Shown here piece by piece: positions 22,223 through 37,574 of a DNA stretch of 64,000 bases. Every line of letters starts with the position of its first letter. The first letter of the stretch is position 1. Below the pieces are notes generated by a model. The model worked only from the letters and a program-made list of their open reading frames with translations. It was not told where the DNA came from and did no database searches. The stretch is from Escherichia coli (GTDB lineage Bacteria > Pseudomonadota > Gammaproteobacteria > Enterobacterales > Enterobacteriaceae), in NCBI RefSeq assembly GCF_024223415.1, contig NZ_CP100500.1, one strand, 5' to 3'. The translations under genes were made by a program, and so were the position numbers.

Positions 22223-22240
22223 TTCCTACAACTGTAAGAT
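22223..22240 (+). promoter_or_regulatory. EvgA box upstream of yfdX (site 1)
   Basis: TTCCTACA-AC-TGTAAGAT, an 18-bp inverted repeat of the EvgA-box form TTCYTACA-N2-TGTARGAA. Confidence 0.55.
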
Positions 22241-22261
22241 TAAAATACTTCTTGCGATAAT

Positions 22262-22279
22262 AACTACAAGTGTAAGATA
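22262..22279 (+). promoter_or_regulatory. EvgA box-like motif upstream of yfdX (site 2)
   Basis: AACTACA-AG-TGTAAGATA; right half-site matches well, left half is weaker. Confidence 0.4.
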
Positions 22280-23251: not shown

Positions 23252-23269
23252 TTCTTACAGTTGTAAGAA
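23252..23269 (+). promoter_or_regulatory. EvgA box upstream of frc
   Basis: TTCTTACA-GT-TGTAAGAA: the two 8-nt halves are exact reverse complements, and it lies about 250 nt upstream of frc. Confidence 0.6.
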
Positions 23270-28807: not shown

Positions 28808-31800
28808 TTAGTTATTTTGTTGACAGAAAACAGCAATCTCCTGGTCCAGCTCTGCAATGTGTTCTTTTACAGAGTTCAGCAACTGAAGAATTTCAGGCTT
28901 ACTGTCATCTGAAACAGGTGTTATTTCTAACTGATGGCTAATATTAATCAACTTTTGCAAATTCAGGATGTTAGCCGCACCGTGGATGCGATGAATACAC
29001 TGATGGAAAGTTCTATTATCGCCAGCTTCTAGTGCATGAAACGCAGCGGATAAATCTTTATGTGTTTCATGCTGGAAAGTCATGAGAATCTCCTGCATCA
29101 GTTGTAGATCGTTCGCCGTATTATTTTTCAGGGCCTCGATATCAAGGTGGCGATACTGAGGTACAATATGCGCAACCTGGTGTAACTGACTTAAATGTGT
29201 TTTCAGTACATCCAGGGTCAACGGTTTGAACAAACATAAGTTCATGCCGCAATTTAACCCTTTTTCACGTTCGTTAGCCTGTGCGTTGGCTGTAAGCCCC
29301 CAGATGGGTAAGGACGAATTTTGCTCACGGAGTTTGCGAGTCAACTCAAAACCATCCATATTCGGCATATTAACGTCAGTAATAAGCAGATCATAATGTT
29401 GCATACTGACTTTGTGTAGCGCTTGCACACCATCAGTGGCTTCGTCAACATCATATCCTAATAGATTTAGCTGGCGTTTGAGTAATAGCCTGTTGGTCGG
29501 ATGATCATCCGCGATTAATATGCTCAACTTTTCAGGTAGTGTGATAGGTTGTTCTGCTTTTGCCTCGACAGCCGCCACTTGTTGGGTAATTTCTACCGGG
29601 ATTGTGATCGTAAATGTTGTTCCTATGCCTGGATGACTTTCTAATGACAAATCACCCTGCATGTTTTTAATTAATTCTTTGCAGATCATTAAGCCTAAAC
29701 CAGAACCTGTTTGCTGACGACCTGCACTTGTTTGGCTATAACGTTTAAACAGTTGTTGTTGTTCTTCCTGTGATAATCCACTTCCAGAATCCATAATCGT
29801 CATTTTGATTACAGCGTGGTTGTCATCAATGTGAACCAGGGCGGTCGTAATTTTTACTGCCCCCTCGGTGGTAAATTTGAGAGCATTACTCAGTAAATTT
29901 GATAAGAGCTGCTTAAACGCCTGAGGGTCGATCTTAACCAGGTAATGTTCAGGAAACGTACTGCTGCAACTTAATGCGATCGATTTGCTTGCAGTAATCG
30001 CACCGAAAGAGTGACAAGTGTTCTGGACTAAAGTAGGAATATCGACCCATTGTGGTTGAAGTTGATAGTTACCCGATTCAATTTTGTCGACATCAAGGAT
30101 TTCACCAATTAAGCCGAGGAGTGATTGTCCGGTGGCGTAGGCAAGTGAAATCGCCTCCACCCGTTGTTCCTTGCTAAGACCAGAACCCGACAGAAGTTCC
30201 AGGAAGCCCATAATGGAGCTTATTGGTGTTCTTATTTCGTGACTCATTGTTGCCAGAAACTGACTTTTTGCGACAGTTGCATTGATCGCTTTATTTCTCT
30301 CTACTTCGAGTGCATGAATTAAATCACGCGTCTCGGTAATATCTTGCCAACCACAAATATAAACAGCATGTTCGCTGGCTGGCAGATTACATAATGTATG
30401 CCAGTGATTAATGCATCTTTTCTCGATGCCATTATCAATTTCAAATACCTGTGTGTATATTGTTCGGTTTTCTTTCGTCTCTGCTGTGACTTCATGCGTA
30501 TTAGAAAAAACATCTTTAAAGGGTGATTCACTGTTTTCTAATGGCAACATTGCATTTTTGTAGTAATCAGCAGTGAAATAATGTTCAAATGCACTATTGT
30601 GACTAATGACATTACCTTGCCAGTTTACAACATAAGTTGGATTCGGTAAGGAGTCCGAGAGCGCTTTCCGGAATGATATTTGGTTTTCTAAATCACCCTG
30701 AATGACTTTACGACGACGAACTGAGCGTAACAGGTAGAATCCCCATAAAAGGCTACTGCCAACTAATAAAACGGATAATGTCGTAACAATATAAAATTGC
30801 TCGCTATAGAGGTCCCATGTGTCAATGGTCACATTGGGCATTTTAATCCATTTTTCGGTCAGGCGCAGAACTTCGCTTGGGGGGATTGCATTCAGTGCTT
30901 TATTAATAATATCCTTAAGTTCCGGTTCTCCGCGAGGAAAAGCGAACGAAAGCGATGCATTCGGAACGCCGGGAATAAGAAAATGATAAAGTTCATTAGG
31001 ATAGTAATGGTCGATCATGTAACGTGAATTTAACTGTGTCGCGACCAGAGCATCAAGTTCGCCTTCCTTGACCTTGTGAAATGCAGCGCTGGCGTTATCG
31101 ACTTTTATCCACTCTACCTCCGGATACATCTCTTTTAATTGCGAATGAAGCTCATAATAATATGGAATGGCAACTTTCATTCCTTTTTTTAATGTTTGTT
31201 CACTGTCAGGCGCTTTTTGCATGACAAAAACGTAAGGCGTTGTTATGAAGGCTTCAGCAAATAAAACATTATTTTCTCTATCTTCACTATAAATAGCACC
31301 GGGTAATATATCCCATCCGCCGGGATTCAGCTGTGTTCCGGCATGGATATTGTGTGAAACGGTGATCGGAGAAAAATTTAAACCTGTTTGCAAGGTAATA
31401 ATATTAAGAATGTCCCCCATAACGCCCCGAACCGAGCCATTTTCATCCGTCATAGAATAGGGGGGCGAGTAAGGATTTTCCAGCACCTTTAAATCGGGAT
31501 GCTGCTTAATCCACTGTTTTTCATGTTCAGTGAGTTCTAATGGCTTGTTCAGAAAGGCCAGGTTTCCTGTATCAAGCCAATTTTGTGATACTTCATAGCG
31601 AACTTCATTTGTTAAAGCATCAACAAATCGATTGAGTACTTCATTAAGAATGACAGATTCTTTTCTGGTTAAGAAGAAGTTATATTGACGCGGTGAGTTA
31701 TAATATTTCACTACATTTAAGGAGTGAGTGAAATAGCGGGAAATCATACTGCTGGTAATGATGTTACTACCAATAAAGTAATCATTCTGTCCGGCTGAGA

Positions 31801-32401
31801 CGGATGCTAATGCCTGATATAAATTTGTAAAAGAGATAATTGTTGCTTTTGGAAATGATTGATGAATTACCTCGTCAGGGGGATAATTTGCTACTCGAGC
31901 AATATTTACTGGTTTTGATGAGGTAAGCGGTCGCATTGAATCGTGAAGGGTGGTGACCAGTGCCGGAAAGGTAATTATCAGTGGTTTGGTTGCAGCAATG
32001 TCATCATTAAGAGGCGGCGAAGTAACTAAATGTGATAACACTATATCGACTTCACCTTCTTCCAGCGCGTCCATTGCTTTTTGATGATCGGCGTATTCCC
32101 GGAGTGTTAATTTGATATTTAACGCTCTTTTTAAAAGATTTAAATAATCAGCATTAATACCACGAACCCGTTGCTGCGAATCGGTATGCAACAACGTAGC
32201 CGTTTGGGACTTGTGTACTGCAATCACAAGATTTTTTTTGCTCGCTAACCAACGTAATTCCTTGTTGCTCAGACGTAGTGGATCAAGTGTGACACGGTTG
32301 TTACTACTGATGCCACGGTATTCGATGTAATCTTCGTCTGCGAAACTTATGGTCGACCAAAGACCACAACAGAGAAGAAAAATATAGGGTAAAAACTTCA
32401 T
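28808..32401 (-). CDS. evgS: Hybrid sensor histidine kinase EvgS
   Basis: 1197-aa ORF with a signal peptide, two periplasmic solute-binding-like domains, HisKA/ATPase, receiver and HPt domains. Confidence 0.95.
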   Translation of the reverse strand: MKFLPYIFLLCCGLWSTISFADEDYIEYRGISSNNRVTLDPLRLSNKELRWLASKKNLVIAVHKSQTATLLHTDSQQRVRGINADYLNLLKRALNIKLTLREYADHQKAMDALEEGEVDIVLSHLVTSPPLNDDIAATKPLIITFPALVTTLHDSMRPLTSSKPVNIARVANYPPDEVIHQSFPKATIISFTNLYQALASVSAGQNDYFIGSNIITSSMISRYFTHSLNVVKYYNSPRQYNFFLTRKESVILNEVLNRFVDALTNEVRYEVSQNWLDTGNLAFLNKPLELTEHEKQWIKQHPDLKVLENPYSPPYSMTDENGSVRGVMGDILNIITLQTGLNFSPITVSHNIHAGTQLNPGGWDILPGAIYSEDRENNVLFAEAFITTPYVFVMQKAPDSEQTLKKGMKVAIPYYYELHSQLKEMYPEVEWIKVDNASAAFHKVKEGELDALVATQLNSRYMIDHYYPNELYHFLIPGVPNASLSFAFPRGEPELKDIINKALNAIPPSEVLRLTEKWIKMPNVTIDTWDLYSEQFYIVTTLSVLLVGSSLLWGFYLLRSVRRRKVIQGDLENQISFRKALSDSLPNPTYVVNWQGNVISHNSAFEHYFTADYYKNAMLPLENSESPFKDVFSNTHEVTAETKENRTIYTQVFEIDNGIEKRCINHWHTLCNLPASEHAVYICGWQDITETRDLIHALEVERNKAINATVAKSQFLATMSHEIRTPISSIMGFLELLSGSGLSKEQRVEAISLAYATGQSLLGLIGEILDVDKIESGNYQLQPQWVDIPTLVQNTCHSFGAITASKSIALSCSSTFPEHYLVKIDPQAFKQLLSNLLSNALKFTTEGAVKITTALVHIDDNHAVIKMTIMDSGSGLSQEEQQQLFKRYSQTSAGRQQTGSGLGLMICKELIKNMQGDLSLESHPGIGTTFTITIPVEITQQVAAVEAKAEQPITLPEKLSILIADDHPTNRLLLKRQLNLLGYDVDEATDGVQALHKVSMQHYDLLITDVNMPNMDGFELTRKLREQNSSLPIWGLTANAQANEREKGLNCGMNLCLFKPLTLDVLKTHLSQLHQVAHIVPQYRHLDIEALKNNTANDLQLMQEILMTFQHETHKDLSAAFHALEAGDNRTFHQCIHRIHGAANILNLQKLINISHQLEITPVSDDSKPEILQLLNSVKEHIAELDQEIAVFCQQNN

Positions 32402-32405
32402 GTGG

Positions 32406-33020
32406 TTAGCCGATTTTGTTACGTTGTGCGAATGTGTAAAGATCCATCAGTGATTTACATTCTAATTTTTCCATCAGGCGACTTTTATAAGTGCTGACAG
32501 TTTTGTTGCTGATGAACATTTTTTCAGCAATGTCATTATTATCCTTGCCATCAAGAATATAGCGCATGACACTAATTTCTTGTTTCGATAAGGAGTCGAG
32601 TTTTTGCTGGTCGGACGTTAAACTTCCAACAAACCGGTTGAGAGAGAAGGGGAAATAGCAGTAGCCATTTTTTGCAGCTTCAATAGCCGCAATGATATTG
32701 TTCATGCCTTCTTTTTTACTCACGAAACCATTAGCGCCAGCATCAGCACAATGTTTCCCGTAAAAATGGTCATTTTTAGCGGAGACGATAATAATAATTC
32801 CGCTATATTGGCGCTTCCTCAGCGTTTCTAACACCTGGATACCGTTAACTCCGGGGATATCGACATCAATGATGACGATATCAGGCTTAAGTGTTTCCAC
32901 CCGCTGAACGGCACTTCCGCCTTCAGTCAACTCTGCTAAGATTTCAATATCGTTTTTGATCAATAAATTACGAATTGCTGCGATAGCAAGAGGATGGTCA
33001 TCAATAATTATTGCGTTCAT
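32406..33020 (-). CDS. evgA: Response regulator EvgA (NarL/FixJ family)
   Basis: 204-aa ORF starting MNAIIIDDHPLAIAAIRNLLIKNDIEILAEL with a LuxR-type HTH C-terminus. Confidence 0.95.
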   Translation of the reverse strand: MNAIIIDDHPLAIAAIRNLLIKNDIEILAELTEGGSAVQRVETLKPDIVIIDVDIPGVNGIQVLETLRKRQYSGIIIIVSAKNDHFYGKHCADAGANGFVSKKEGMNNIIAAIEAAKNGYCYFPFSLNRFVGSLTSDQQKLDSLSKQEISVMRYILDGKDNNDIAEKMFISNKTVSTYKSRLMEKLECKSLMDLYTFAQRNKIG

Positions 33021-33245
33021 AGATTATTCCCTTTGCAATGAAGCATCTCCCTTCTCCCTGTAGTAATACAGACATAAGGCATCATCTCATTTTCTCAATA
33101 AAAATAAGAAAATTTGAGCTTCCTTTAAGATAATTCGACAAGTATACCATATAAATAGTCGGCATATATGAAATGTCAACAATAAAATCAGGGATTATAC
33201 CGATGATTTATAGTTTCAAGTTAGCACTATAAGTCTTCTCACTAA

Positions 33246-33262
33246 TCCTACAGGCGTAAGAA
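33246..33262 (+). promoter_or_regulatory. EvgA box in the evgA-emrK divergent promoter region
   Basis: TCCTACA-GGCG-TAAGAA, resembling the EvgA-box half-sites with non-canonical spacing. Confidence 0.45.
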
Positions 33263-33435
33263 TTGTATTGCAAAAGCCACGGTTTAGTCCTCTGTTGTTT
33301 TTTTTGCACCTCATTTAAATTAGGCCTCCAACGTTCCTGGGATAATGTGCAACACATGCACTGTGTTTGATATGAAGAATGAATACTCTTTTCATTCAAT
33401 TCATAAATTTCATCTATGCGAAATGAGAGATAATA

Positions 33436-34599
33436 GTGGAACAGATTAATTCAAATAAAAAACATTCTAACAGAAGAAAATACTTTTCTTTATTGGCGAT
33501 AGTTTTATTTATTGCGTTTTCAGGTGCTTATGCCTATTGGTCAATGGAATTAGAAGACATGATTAGTACAGATGACGCCTATGTCACGGGGAATGCAGAT
33601 CCAATTTCTGCACAAGTCTCAGGTAGTGTCACTGTAGTTAATCATAAAGATACGAACTACGTTCGACAGGGTGACATTTTAGTTTCACTGGATAAAACTG
33701 ATGCCACTATCGCACTCAATAAAGCTAAAAATAATCTGGCAAATATTGTTCGGCAAACGAATAAACTGTACTTACAGGATAAACAATACAGTGCCGAAGT
33801 CGCTTCAGCACGTATTCAGTATCAACAATCTTTAGAAGATTATAACCGTCGTGTGCCTTTAGCGAAGCAGGGGGTTATTTCAAAAGAAACGCTGGAGCAT
33901 ACCAAAGATACGTTAATAAGTAGCAAAGCGGCATTGAATGCCGCTATCCAGGCTTATAAAGCGAATAAAGCTTTAGTAATGAACACACCATTAAACCGTC
34001 AGCCACAAGTCGTTGAAGCTGCGGATGCAACCAAAGAAGCCTGGTTGGCGCTTAAACGTACGGATATTAAGAGTCCGGTTACCGGCTATATTGCCCAGAG
34101 AAGTGTTCAGGTCGGCGAAACAGTGAGCCCCGGACAATCGTTAATGGCTGTCGTACCGGCACGTCAAATGTGGGTTAATGCCAACTTTAAAGAAACACAA
34201 CTCACGGATGTACGGATTGGTCAATCGGTCAATATTATCAGCGATCTTTATGGTGAAAATGTTGTGTTTCATGGCCGGGTGACAGGGATCAATATGGGAA
34301 CCGGCAATGCGTTCTCCTTATTACCTGCACAAAATGCGACAGGGAACTGGATCAAAATCGTTCAGCGTGTACCGGTTGAAGTTTCTCTTGATCCAAAAGA
34401 ACTCATGGAACACCCCTTGCGCATTGGTTTATCGATGACTGCAACTATTGATATGAAGGACGAAGACATTGCTGAGATGCCTGATCTGGCTTCAACCGTG
34501 ACCTCCATGCCTGCTTATACCAGTAAGGCTTTAGTTATCGATACCAGTCCGATAGAAAAAGAAATTAGCAACATTATTTCGCATAATGGACAACTTTAA
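33436..34599 (+). CDS. emrK: Multidrug efflux membrane fusion protein EmrK
   Basis: 387-aa ORF with an N-terminal TM anchor and HlyD-like periplasmic adaptor region. Confidence 0.9.
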   Translation: MEQINSNKKHSNRRKYFSLLAIVLFIAFSGAYAYWSMELEDMISTDDAYVTGNADPISAQVSGSVTVVNHKDTNYVRQGDILVSLDKTDATIALNKAKNNLANIVRQTNKLYLQDKQYSAEVASARIQYQQSLEDYNRRVPLAKQGVISKETLEHTKDTLISSKAALNAAIQAYKANKALVMNTPLNRQPQVVEAADATKEAWLALKRTDIKSPVTGYIAQRSVQVGETVSPGQSLMAVVPARQMWVNANFKETQLTDVRIGQSVNIISDLYGENVVFHGRVTGINMGTGNAFSLLPAQNATGNWIKIVQRVPVEVSLDPKELMEHPLRIGLSMTATIDMKDEDIAEMPDLASTVTSMPAYTSKALVIDTSPIEKEISNIISHNGQL

Positions 34600-36137
34600 T
34601 GGCAATCACTAAATCAACTCCGGCACCATTAACCGGTGGGACGTTATGGTGCGTCACTATTGCATTGTCATTAGCGACGTTTATGCAAATGTTGGATTCC
34701 ACTATTTCTAACGTCGCAATACCGACAATATCTGGCTTTCTGGGAGCATCAACAGACGAAGGCACCTGGGTTATCACCTCGTTTGGCGTAGCAAATGCCA
34801 TTGCGATCCCTGTTACCGGCAGGCTGGCACAAAGAATAGGCGAATTAAGGTTATTTTTACTTTCAGTCACTTTTTTTTCGCTGTCTTCCTTAATGTGTAG
34901 TTTATCGACCAATCTTGATGTGCTGATATTTTTTAGAGTCGTTCAGGGATTAATGGCGGGGCCGTTAATTCCACTGTCACAGAGTTTATTATTAAGGAAT
35001 TATCCACCAGAAAAAAGAACATTTGCTCTGGCATTATGGTCTATGACCGTGATTATCGCTCCGATATGTGGGCCGATATTAGGCGGTTATATTTGTGATA
35101 ACTTTAGCTGGGGTTGGATATTTTTAATCAATGTCCCTATGGGGATTATCGTCCTGACATTATGCTTAACCTTACTTAAAGGAAGAGAAACTGAGACTTC
35201 ACCGGTCAAAATGAATCTACCAGGACTGACCCTGTTAGTGCTCGGTGTTGGTGGCTTGCAAATTATGCTTGATAAAGGGCGCGATCTGGATTGGTTCAAC
35301 TCGAGTACAATAATAATATTAACAGTAGTATCAGTTATTTCTCTGATCTCTTTAGTCATTTGGGAGTCGACCTCAGAGAACCCGATTCTTGATCTCAGTT
35401 TGTTTAAGTCCCGTAACTTCACCATTGGTATTGTGAGTATCACATGCGCGTATTTATTTTACTCTGGAGCGATAGTCCTTATGCCGCAGTTACTCCAGGA
35501 AACAATGGGGTATAATGCGATTTGGGCTGGGCTTGCTTATGCGCCCATCGGCATCATGCCGCTATTAATATCACCTTTGATAGGACGTTATGGCAACAAA
35601 ATTGATATGCGGTTGTTGGTGACATTTAGTTTTTTAATGTATGCGGTTTGCTATTACTGGCGTTCTGTGACATTTATGCCAACGATTGATTTTACAGGCA
35701 TCATTTTGCCACAGTTTTTTCAGGGATTCGCCGTCGCCTGTTTCTTTTTACCCTTAACAACGATTTCGTTTTCAGGTTTGCCAGATAATAAATTTGCCAA
35801 TGCCTCGAGTATGAGTAATTTTTTTCGTACCTTGTCAGGATCAGTTGGTACGTCGTTGACAATGACGCTGTGGGGACGCCGAGAATCATTACACCATAGT
35901 CAGTTGACAGCAACCATCGATCAATTTAACCCCGTGTTTAATTCATCGTCACAAATTATGGATAAATACTATGGTTCGCTTTCAGGGGTTCTTAATGAAA
36001 TTAATAATGAAATAACTCAGCAGTCACTTTCAATTTCTGCAAATGAGATTTTCCGTATGGCGGCTATTGCTTTTATCTTACTTACGGTATTGGTTTGGTT
36101 TGCGAAACCGCCGTTTACAGCGAAAGGTGTTGGGTGA
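34599..36137 (+). CDS. emrY: MFS (DHA2) multidrug efflux pump EmrY
   Basis: 512-aa 14-TM MFS ORF whose start overlaps the emrK stop. Confidence 0.9.
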   Translation: MAITKSTPAPLTGGTLWCVTIALSLATFMQMLDSTISNVAIPTISGFLGASTDEGTWVITSFGVANAIAIPVTGRLAQRIGELRLFLLSVTFFSLSSLMCSLSTNLDVLIFFRVVQGLMAGPLIPLSQSLLLRNYPPEKRTFALALWSMTVIIAPICGPILGGYICDNFSWGWIFLINVPMGIIVLTLCLTLLKGRETETSPVKMNLPGLTLLVLGVGGLQIMLDKGRDLDWFNSSTIIILTVVSVISLISLVIWESTSENPILDLSLFKSRNFTIGIVSITCAYLFYSGAIVLMPQLLQETMGYNAIWAGLAYAPIGIMPLLISPLIGRYGNKIDMRLLVTFSFLMYAVCYYWRSVTFMPTIDFTGIILPQFFQGFAVACFFLPLTTISFSGLPDNKFANASSMSNFFRTLSGSVGTSLTMTLWGRRESLHHSQLTATIDQFNPVFNSSSQIMDKYYGSLSGVLNEINNEITQQSLSISANEIFRMAAIAFILLTVLVWFAKPPFTAKGVG

Positions 36138-36245: not shown

Positions 36246-37574
36246 TTAGCGGCCTTTTGCCAGATATTGCTCCATCTCTTCTTCCGGCACCATTCCACCT
36301 CCCGTCGCCCACACCAGATGAGTGGCATTACGCAGTTGTTCTGCGCTGAAACCGTGCATCTGTTGGTAACTTACTGATGCGCACACGCGCTGAGGCCCGG
36401 CCATACCCGCCAGTGCCGAAGGTTCAAGACGAATACCTTCTTCCTGCGTCAGCCAGCCAAGCATGTCATACATGGTTGGATCGCTAAGGGTATAGAAGCC
36501 ATCCAGCAGACGCTCCATTGCCCGCCCGACAAAGCCTGATGCGCGACCAACAGCAAGGCCATCCGCTGCGGTAAGGTTGTCGATACCAATATCCTGAACA
36601 GAGATCTGATCGTGTAATCCTGTATGGACGCCTAACAGCATACAAGGGGAGTGCGTTGGTTCGGCAAAAAAACAGTGAACATGATCGCCAAACGCCAGTT
36701 TAAGTCCGAATGCGACGCCACCAGGACCACCGCCAACACCACACGGCAGATAGACAAACAGAGGGTTATCAGCATCGACGATACGACCTTGCTCGGCAAA
36801 TTGCGCTTTAAGACGCTGGCCAGCGACGGAATACCCAAGGAACAACGTGCGGGAATTTTCGTCATCAATAAAGAAACAGTTCGGGTCAGACTGCGCTGCT
36901 TTACGTCCTTCCTCGACGGCAACACCATAATCTTGCTCATATTCCACGACCGTAACGCCATGGCTGCGCAGTTTCGCTTTTTTCCATGCCCGGGCATCAG
37001 CAGACATATGCACTGTCACCTTAAAGCCAATGCGGGCGCTCATAATGCCGATTGATAACCCCAGATTTCCGGTTGAGCCCACAGCAATGCTGTATTGGCT
37101 AAAGAACTGTTTAAACTCCGGAGAAAGCAGTTTGCTGTAGTCATCATCAAGCGTCAGCAACCCCGCTTCCAGAGCCAGTTTTTCTGCGTGTGCCAGGACT
37201 TCATAAATCCCGCCGCGTGCTTTTATGGAGCCGGAAATGGGCAAATGGCTATCTTTTTTCAGTAACAGTTGCCCGCTGATCGGTTGTTGATATTCCTTTT
37301 CCAGCCGTTTTTGCATAGCCGGAATGGCAACCAGTTCTGATTCAATAATCCCCCCAGTGGCAGCAGTTTCAGGAAATGCTTTTGCCAGATAGGGTGCAAA
37401 ACGGGATAAGCGCGCATGGGCGTCCTGAACATCCTGTTCGGTCAGGCCAACATAAGGTAAACCTTCAGCCAATGAGGTCGTGCCAGGATTAAACCAGGTG
37501 GTTTCTTTAAGAGCAACCAGATCCTTTACCAACGGATACTGGGCGATGAGCGAGTTCATTTTAGCGTTTTCCAT
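36246..37574 (-). CDS. dsdA: D-serine ammonia-lyase (D-serine dehydratase)
   Basis: 442-aa ORF starting [31 protein letters not shown], with the PLP-lysine region SGSIKARGG. Confidence 0.95.

Follow-up and report, generated by a model that had tools for sequence, protein, structure and literature searches.

Two operons diverge from a single spacer at the evgA-emrK locus of Escherichia coli, and the question raised by this arrangement is where within the spacer the response regulator EvgA binds and which of the two operons it controls from there. We analysed a 64-kb stretch of E. coli chromosome (hereafter the window) in which evgA (32406-33020, minus strand, ATG at 33020) and evgS (28808-32401, minus strand) lie to the left of the spacer; emrK (33436-34599, plus strand, GTG start at 33436) and emrY (34599-36137, plus strand) lie to its right and together make up the target operon, which encodes an MFS efflux pump (33436-36137, plus strand). 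The annotation of the matching records and the list of open reading frames agree that positions 33021-33435 are the whole divergent spacer, end to end. Used as a query, these 415 bp match strain 2013C-4465 at 100% identity and K-12 at 98.1%, and they occur in 5398 of the 5426 complete E. coli genomes; their GC content is 33.5%, versus 48.4% for the window. EvgA itself is an acid-sensing response regulator that joins a receiver (REC) domain to a GerE domain, a LuxR-type helix-turn-helix (Pfam Response_reg, 1.5e-27; GerE, 2.8e-22). Structures of EvgA have been deposited (5F64, 8ZWN and 3F6C), and its best non-EvgA match among solved structures is NarL. Beyond emrY, the closest annotated strain (L001, 9225-12415) has dsdA as a pseudogene with an internal stop, followed by a truncated dsdX and then by a LacI-family regulator and cscA (sucrose genes); the window has a full 442-aa open reading frame at 36246-37574, one base off that strain's dsdA-pseudogene annotation.

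An earlier interpretation made from the letters alone (the sequence-only reading) had placed an EvgA-like site, TCCTACA-GGCG-TAAGAA, between the divergent evgAS and emrKY operons, and the site is there: TCCTACAGGCGTAAGAA occurs at 33246-33262 on the plus strand, inside the spacer. The same interpretation held that the gap between the half-sites was not the canonical 2 nt, and that either the site was atypical or its own half-site assignment was wrong. The pattern TTCYTACA-N2-TGTRAGAA, which we take to be the EvgA-box consensus of E. coli K-12 EvgA-regulated promoters, served as our starting point and was afterwards re-derived from the sequences themselves. In register with the other EvgA boxes, the site is an 18-bp imperfect inverted repeat at 33245-33262, ATCCTACA-GG-CGTAAGAA (full letters ATCCTACAGGCGTAAGAA), consisting of a left half-site ATCCTACA (33245-33252, plus strand), a central 2-nt gap GG (33253-33254), and a right half-site (33255-33262) that reads CGTAAGAA on the plus strand and TTCTTACG on the minus strand. 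The left half-site has the top half-site score of the spacer, 10.7 bits. The layout is thus 8-2-8, or alternatively 7-2-7 if written TCCTACA-GG-CGTAAGA, and the box departs from TTCYTACA-NN-TGTRAGAA at 2 of 16 specified positions, A33245 and C33255.

This register settles the doubt about spacing in favour of the second of the two options. The right half proposed earlier, TAAGAA, left out its first two bases, CG (TG in the consensus), so the gap was counted as GGCG; the true right half starts at C33255. The symmetry of the box was hidden because C33255 stands where the consensus has T, and the worry about spacing was an artefact of half-sites that had been assigned wrongly. Judged from its letters, the site is canonical in spacing, 8-2-8, and carries two departures from the consensus.

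How far does such a site stand out from chance? Scanning the 64 kb with TTCYTACA-NN-TGTRAGAA at up to 3 mismatches gave 7 strand-hits at 4 loci against an expectation of 1.13, a total that no shuffle attained. Trained on five other EvgA boxes, with the evgA-emrK site left out, a symmetrised weight matrix scored this site at 19.96 bits, which ranks it third among 63,983 positions; training boxes inside the window hold the other three of the first four ranks, and the maximum outside the four boxes is 8.91 bits. A score of 19.96 bits was reached by 0 of 200 shuffled windows and 0 of 20,000 shuffled spacers. Because reliance on a consensus chosen beforehand would be circular, we also carried out a pattern-free search for shared 18-mers across the upstream regions of evgA-emrK, yfdX, frc, safA, and ydeP: the top shared 18-mer is the EvgA box, with the top seed within the evgA-emrK spacer at 33245/33246. 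The site is the best EvgA-box match in the spacer and the only strong one.

The company that the site keeps points the same way. All four loci found by the pattern scan precede genes reported to be EvgA-regulated, namely yfdX (two boxes), frc, and emrK/evgA, and the four located boxes constitute a compact check of the motif within the window. Upstream of yfdX are TTCCTACAACTGTAAGAT (22223-22240) and, as box 2, TAACTACAAGTGTAAGAT (22261-22278); upstream of frc (yfdW) is the perfect box TTCTTACAGTTGTAAGAA (23252-23269). In K-12, EvgA-type dyads lie upstream of safA (TGCCTACAGCTGTAAGAA) and ydeP (AGCCTACACCTGTAAGAA). Inverted repeats upstream of yfdX and yfdWUVE are bound by EvgA (PMC3720670). 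The frc box and yfdX box 2 also have CTCTCTGATT in common, beginning 20-22 nt past the box, and CCAATAT further down.

We compared the box across a homologue survey with one EvgA-carrying genome per species. The box is identical in K-12. In a divergent genome labelled E. coli (L004), in which EvgA is 98% and the spacer 85.5% identical, the position is unchanged and the dyad is perfect (TTCCTACAGGTGTAAGAA). In Yersinia vastinensis (L005, IP38594), in which EvgA is 94% and the spacer only 65% identical, the box reads TGCCTACACGTGTAAGAA. The cores CCTACA and GTAAGAA are unchanged in all nine aligned sequences, these two genomes included. Within 33247-33262 the nine-sequence alignment varies at 2 of 16 columns (33253 and 33255), versus 44.5% of columns in the spacer. 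The longest invariant run of the spacer, GTAAGAATTGTATT at 33256-33269, is made up of the right half-site and a conserved 3′ flank, TTGTATT (33263-33269, plus strand). Position 33255 is T, the consensus base, in both L004 and Y. vastinensis, and position 33253 is C in Yersinia; A33245 and C33255 are constant across the seven aligned spacers from complete E. coli genomes. Near the EvgA homologues of Hafnia, Klebsiella, Enterobacter, and Buttiauxella (66-71% identity), no box with up to 3 mismatches was found within 3 kb; these homologues therefore contribute nothing to the conservation footprint.

Within the species, the box is essentially fixed over about 5400 genomes. Of the 5426 complete E. 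coli genomes, 5038 carry the 52-mer around the box as it stands in the window, and 372 more carry a variant, G33253T, in the central gap; at 94% identity or more, the box-containing 52-mer or the central-gap variant is found in about 5400 of the 5426. G33253T is the sole common E. coli polymorphism within the box, and since it falls in the gap, it affects a base that a dimer bound to the dyad would not be expected to read. The perfect box of the L004 type was found in none of the complete E. coli genomes.

The evidence that EvgA acts on emrKY comes largely from published work. EvgA is reported to bind in the promoter region of emrKY and to control it directly (PMC9496106, citing Kato 2000). 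In Shigella, induction of an emrK-gfp fusion, both at pH 6 and in macrophages, requires evgA and is lost when that gene is deleted (PMC6393483). Constitutive evgS alleles induce emrKY, among others, and every directly regulated gene has an EvgA binding site (PMC4283999). The EvgA-dependent induction of the EmrKY pump proposed by the sequence-only reading is thus borne out by the box match, by its conservation in orthologous spacers, and by these reports (PMC6393483 and PMC9496106). We are highly confident that 33245-33262 is the EvgA box of the evgAS-emrKY control region and that it has a role at emrKY; the mechanistic details of how EvgA acts there we hold with less assurance. We envisage that a phosphorylated EvgA dimer, a REC and GerE/LuxR helix-turn-helix protein of the NarL/FixJ family, would bind the 18-bp dyad with one helix-turn-helix per 8-bp half, leaving the 2-bp centre uncontacted. 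Bound there, EvgA would turn on the emrKY efflux-pump operon to the right and may contribute to positive autoregulation of evgAS to the left.

Where would the emrK promoter lie relative to the box? Three EvgA-type promoters suggest a shared geometry. Exactly 23 nt past the box, the emrK side has AGTCCT (33286-33291, plus strand), as does safA, and ydeP has AGTCTT at this offset (AGTCYT overall); the functional role of this element is putative, and TCYT alone is conserved across orthologous spacers. A -10-like hexamer begins 52 nt past the box in emrK (TTAAAT, 33315-33320), safA (TATATT), and ydeP (TAATTT), and the Yersinia string at the aligned position is TAGAAT. We predict that TTAAAT/TAAATT at 33315-33321 (plus strand, 52-53 nt past the box) is the -10 of the EvgA-dependent emrK promoter. 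As a prediction only, transcription of emrK would start near 33327 and the centre of the box would lie near -73, much as it does in safA and ydeP; this distance would suggest that EvgA contacts RNA polymerase from upstream, relieves silencing by H-NS, or does both. When strict criteria are applied, a -10-like hexamer falls 51-53 nt past the box at 4 of 5 EvgA promoters; shuffled sequences give at least four at some offset with P 0.069, and the shared offset is therefore kept as a prediction rather than a result. An alternative candidate is the extended -10 TGgGATAAT (33338-33346, plus strand; TGAGAAGAT in Yersinia), with which the box centre would lie near -99. The supplement of Kim 2012 (PMC3415461) gives no start site for emrK, ydeP, yfdX, yfdW, or safA.

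The resemblance to safA and ydeP extends to the flanks as a whole. The element ACTATAAG occurs 11 nt before the box in both emrK and safA (K-12), at an identical offset. When 60 nt upstream and 110 nt downstream of the boxes were compared with shuffles, emrK and safA agreed at 66 of 170 positions (shuffles 47.5 +/- 5.7, P about 0.0008), safA and ydeP at 73 of 170 (shuffles about 47, P < 0.0002), and emrK and ydeP at 58 of 170 (shuffles about 46, P about 0.025). Read in the evgA orientation, the site has no box-anchored flank similarity comparable to that with safA and ydeP.

Several other features of the emrK side came up along the way. The sole plus-strand hit to a consensus promoter, TCGGCA-18-TAAAAT (33159-33188), lies upstream of the box and, as 2.6 hits are expected, is uninformative. 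A terminator-like hairpin, GTGCA-ACACA-TGCAC followed by TGTGTTTGAT, occupies 33347-33361 in the putative emrK leader (1 found versus 0.2 expected), and the aligned Yersinia sequence has another small hairpin, CTGT-AGTAA-ACAG. RNA structure in this putative leader was considered and set aside: the fold z is -1.65, covariation gives no support, and no Rfam family matches within 32900-33700. The heptamer GTTCCTG (33332-33338) is invariant across orthologous spacers, and its GUUCC is complementary to an invariant GGAAC just past the emrK GTG (33438-33442); this 5-bp pairing has no covariation and probably coincides with the extended -10 element by chance.

On the other side of the box, the annotated evgA promoter (33144-33179, minus strand) has its -35 TTGACA at 33179-33174, its -10 TATATG at 33153-33148, and its start at T33144. 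The reported evgA 5′UTR begins TACTTGTCG (PMC11052181, Table S5) and maps to this same position, 33144 on the minus strand, which places the box centre at -109.5. The resulting leader is 124 nt long (33021-33144, minus strand) and well conserved, and it has CsrA-binding GGA motifs, including AGGGAA over the Shine-Dalgarno sequence at 33032-33027 (PMC11052181). A hexamer TATAAT lies closer to the box, 45 nt past it toward evgA (33199-33194, minus strand), and reads TACAAT in K-12 and TATAGT in Yersinia; it is a speculative candidate for the -10 of a second, EvgA-responsive evgA promoter.

Does the box then serve evgAS at all? The sequence-only reading had also proposed autoregulation, and this claim stands in part. 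Phosphorylated EvgA is reported to positively autoregulate evgSA in EHEC (PMC11644481, citing Yang 2023b), so autoregulation as such finds support; that it runs through this same box is less secure, with the box 109.5 bp from the start and the architecture oriented toward emrK. One alternative, which we consider possible but doubtful, is that the box serves emrKY only and that evgAS is transcribed from the constitutive TTGACA-19-TATATG promoter, with autoregulation being weak, indirect, or exerted through another promoter or site. The -35 of that promoter is perfect, and a published list has it as a constitutive RpoD promoter of evgA (PMC3946193); in macrophages evgA mRNA is unchanged while emrK is strongly induced (PMC6393483). 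The position of the box centre at -109.5 from the annotated evgA start and the occurrence of safA/ydeP-like flanks solely in the emrK orientation fit this alternative as well. So does the spacing in Yersinia: between box centre and emrK start codon it is conserved, at 184.5 bp compared with 182.5 bp in both the window and L004, and between box centre and evgA start codon it is not (204.5 versus 233.5 bp). Against it are the reported autoregulation of evgSA (PMC11644481), the title of Tanabe 1998, which mentions a regulatory sequence of evgAS, and the conserved TATAAT at 33199-33194, 45 nt away from the box, which might belong to a second promoter that responds to EvgA. We retain the reading in which EvgA, bound to one box, turns on emrKY and may contribute to evgAS expression.

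Other observations on the evgA side are more isolated. Kim 2012 assigned to evgA a start site at K-12 2481164(+), 613 nt upstream of the ATG (PMC3415461 supplement). It maps at about 33633 on the minus strand, antisense within the 5′ part of emrK and downstream of a TATGAT hexamer, and transcription from there could read through the entire spacer toward evgA. Just upstream of the box is a conserved inverted repeat, TTATAGT (33208-33214) / ACTATAA (33226-33232). The element ACTATAAG differs by a single change from a TGTAAGA half-site and is also similar to a -10 on the minus strand (TATAGT). The remaining inverted repeats of the spacer are mostly AT-rich chance pairs.

Within the preferred reading, the activation step itself could take a different form, in which EvgA is mainly a counter-silencer that displaces or remodels H-NS on the AT-rich spacer and does not recruit RNA polymerase directly. 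The low GC content of the spacer relative to the window (33.5% versus 48.4%), its listing as an H-NS site (PMC3946193), and the distance of the box from both candidate promoters (-73 to -110) favour this form of activation. The -10-like hexamers of safA, ydeP, yfdX, and frc lie at a near-constant distance from their boxes, however, and a fixed protein-polymerase geometry explains this better. We regard this form of activation as rather unlikely; it is compatible with the main explanation and differs from it in the activation step only.

The weakest alternative takes the motif for a near-palindrome that arose by chance and regulates nothing, or for a binding site of some other member of the LuxR/NarL family, for instance RcsB. 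It has in its favour the two departures from the EvgA consensus and the fact that TAAGAAT also opens the RcsAB-box consensus, but it is scarcely credible given that no shuffled sequence attained 19.96 bits, that the core is unchanged over nine sequences including one with a spacer only 65% identical, and that the other strong matches in the window all lie upstream of EvgA-regulated genes. The RcsAB box is the 14-bp TaAGaatatTCctA; by manual count, TAAGAATTGTATTG (33257-33270) agrees with it at 9 of 14 positions, the TC and the terminal A of the core being among the mismatches, and this candidate was rejected.

Comparison with known systems places the site on familiar ground. The inverted repeat at K-12 EvgA-regulated promoters was reportedly described by Masuda and Church in 2003 and by Itou et al. 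in 2009, and binding of EvgA to the emrK-evgA spacer reportedly by Kato et al. in 2000 and Tanabe et al. in 1998. The locus, the sequence, the 8-2-8 dyad, and the regulon neighbours yfdX and frc are all the same here as for the K-12 EvgA box; nothing of substance is different, A33245 and C33255 being departures from the consensus. The features of a NarL/FixJ-family dyad operator, namely a REC and GerE regulator, an inverted repeat, and a short fixed centre, are all present. The NarL/NarP 7-2-7 sites are likewise inverted repeats with a 2-bp centre, read by proteins that, like EvgA, combine REC and GerE; the NarL heptamer is TACYYMT, and the EvgA half-site sequence, regulon, and signal differ.

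A second comparison is with BvgA. BvgA promoters carry secondary arrays of low-affinity sites that reach the -35 region. Such extra half-sites are not enriched here: the spacer has 4 hits of at least 4 bits, two of which are the box, versus 5.9 +/- 2.3 in shuffles, and the AGTCCT/TCYT element at +23 is only a weak candidate for a BvgA-type secondary site. The likeness lies instead in the unorthodox phosphorelay, the NarL-family activator, and a primary inverted repeat well upstream of the promoter. Among homologous systems, BvgAS of Bordetella stands closest to EvgAS (PMC9496106).

The EvgA box of the evgAS-emrKY region is already known, and because both the control region and the box are textbook-level for E. 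coli K-12, the site has little discovery value in itself. What is gained is a settled spacing, a testable position for the emrK promoter, and the finding that common variation in an otherwise essentially fixed box falls at its presumably uncontacted centre. A more far-reaching idea, which we offer tentatively and think improbable, is that the E. coli box is a deliberately sub-optimal copy set in a fixed composite architecture that is common to safA and, in part, ydeP: ACTATAAG 11 nt before the box (shared with safA only), AGTCYT 23 nt past it, and a -10-like hexamer 52 nt past it. Were both the sub-optimal copy and this architecture functional, they would point to an affinity-graded hierarchy of EvgA promoters and to a second, undescribed contact element near -40; such a hierarchy, if true, would set the firing order of the efflux, autoregulation, and acid-resistance genes.

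Finally, the database searches turned up unusual copies of the locus. A 398-bp contig labelled 'Rhizobium cauense' (L009) is 100% identical to evgA and looks like contamination. Plasmid-classed records hold spacer copies in 20, 5, and 15 places in the searches with the 415-bp spacer, the 52-mer, and the G33253T variant, respectively, and these may be mis-assigned replicons or mobilised copies. In E. coli NCTC10444 (L084), the spacer match stops at base 175 (33195) and is followed by an IS1A element; a fimbrial gene cluster takes the place of the box and emrKY, so that evgAS is left without the box. In Y. vastinensis, an evgA-emrK module (L005 1449-3615) comprises a divergent 387-aa emrK homologue and its own EvgA box, which suggests that the module and its operator may have moved together by horizontal transfer.
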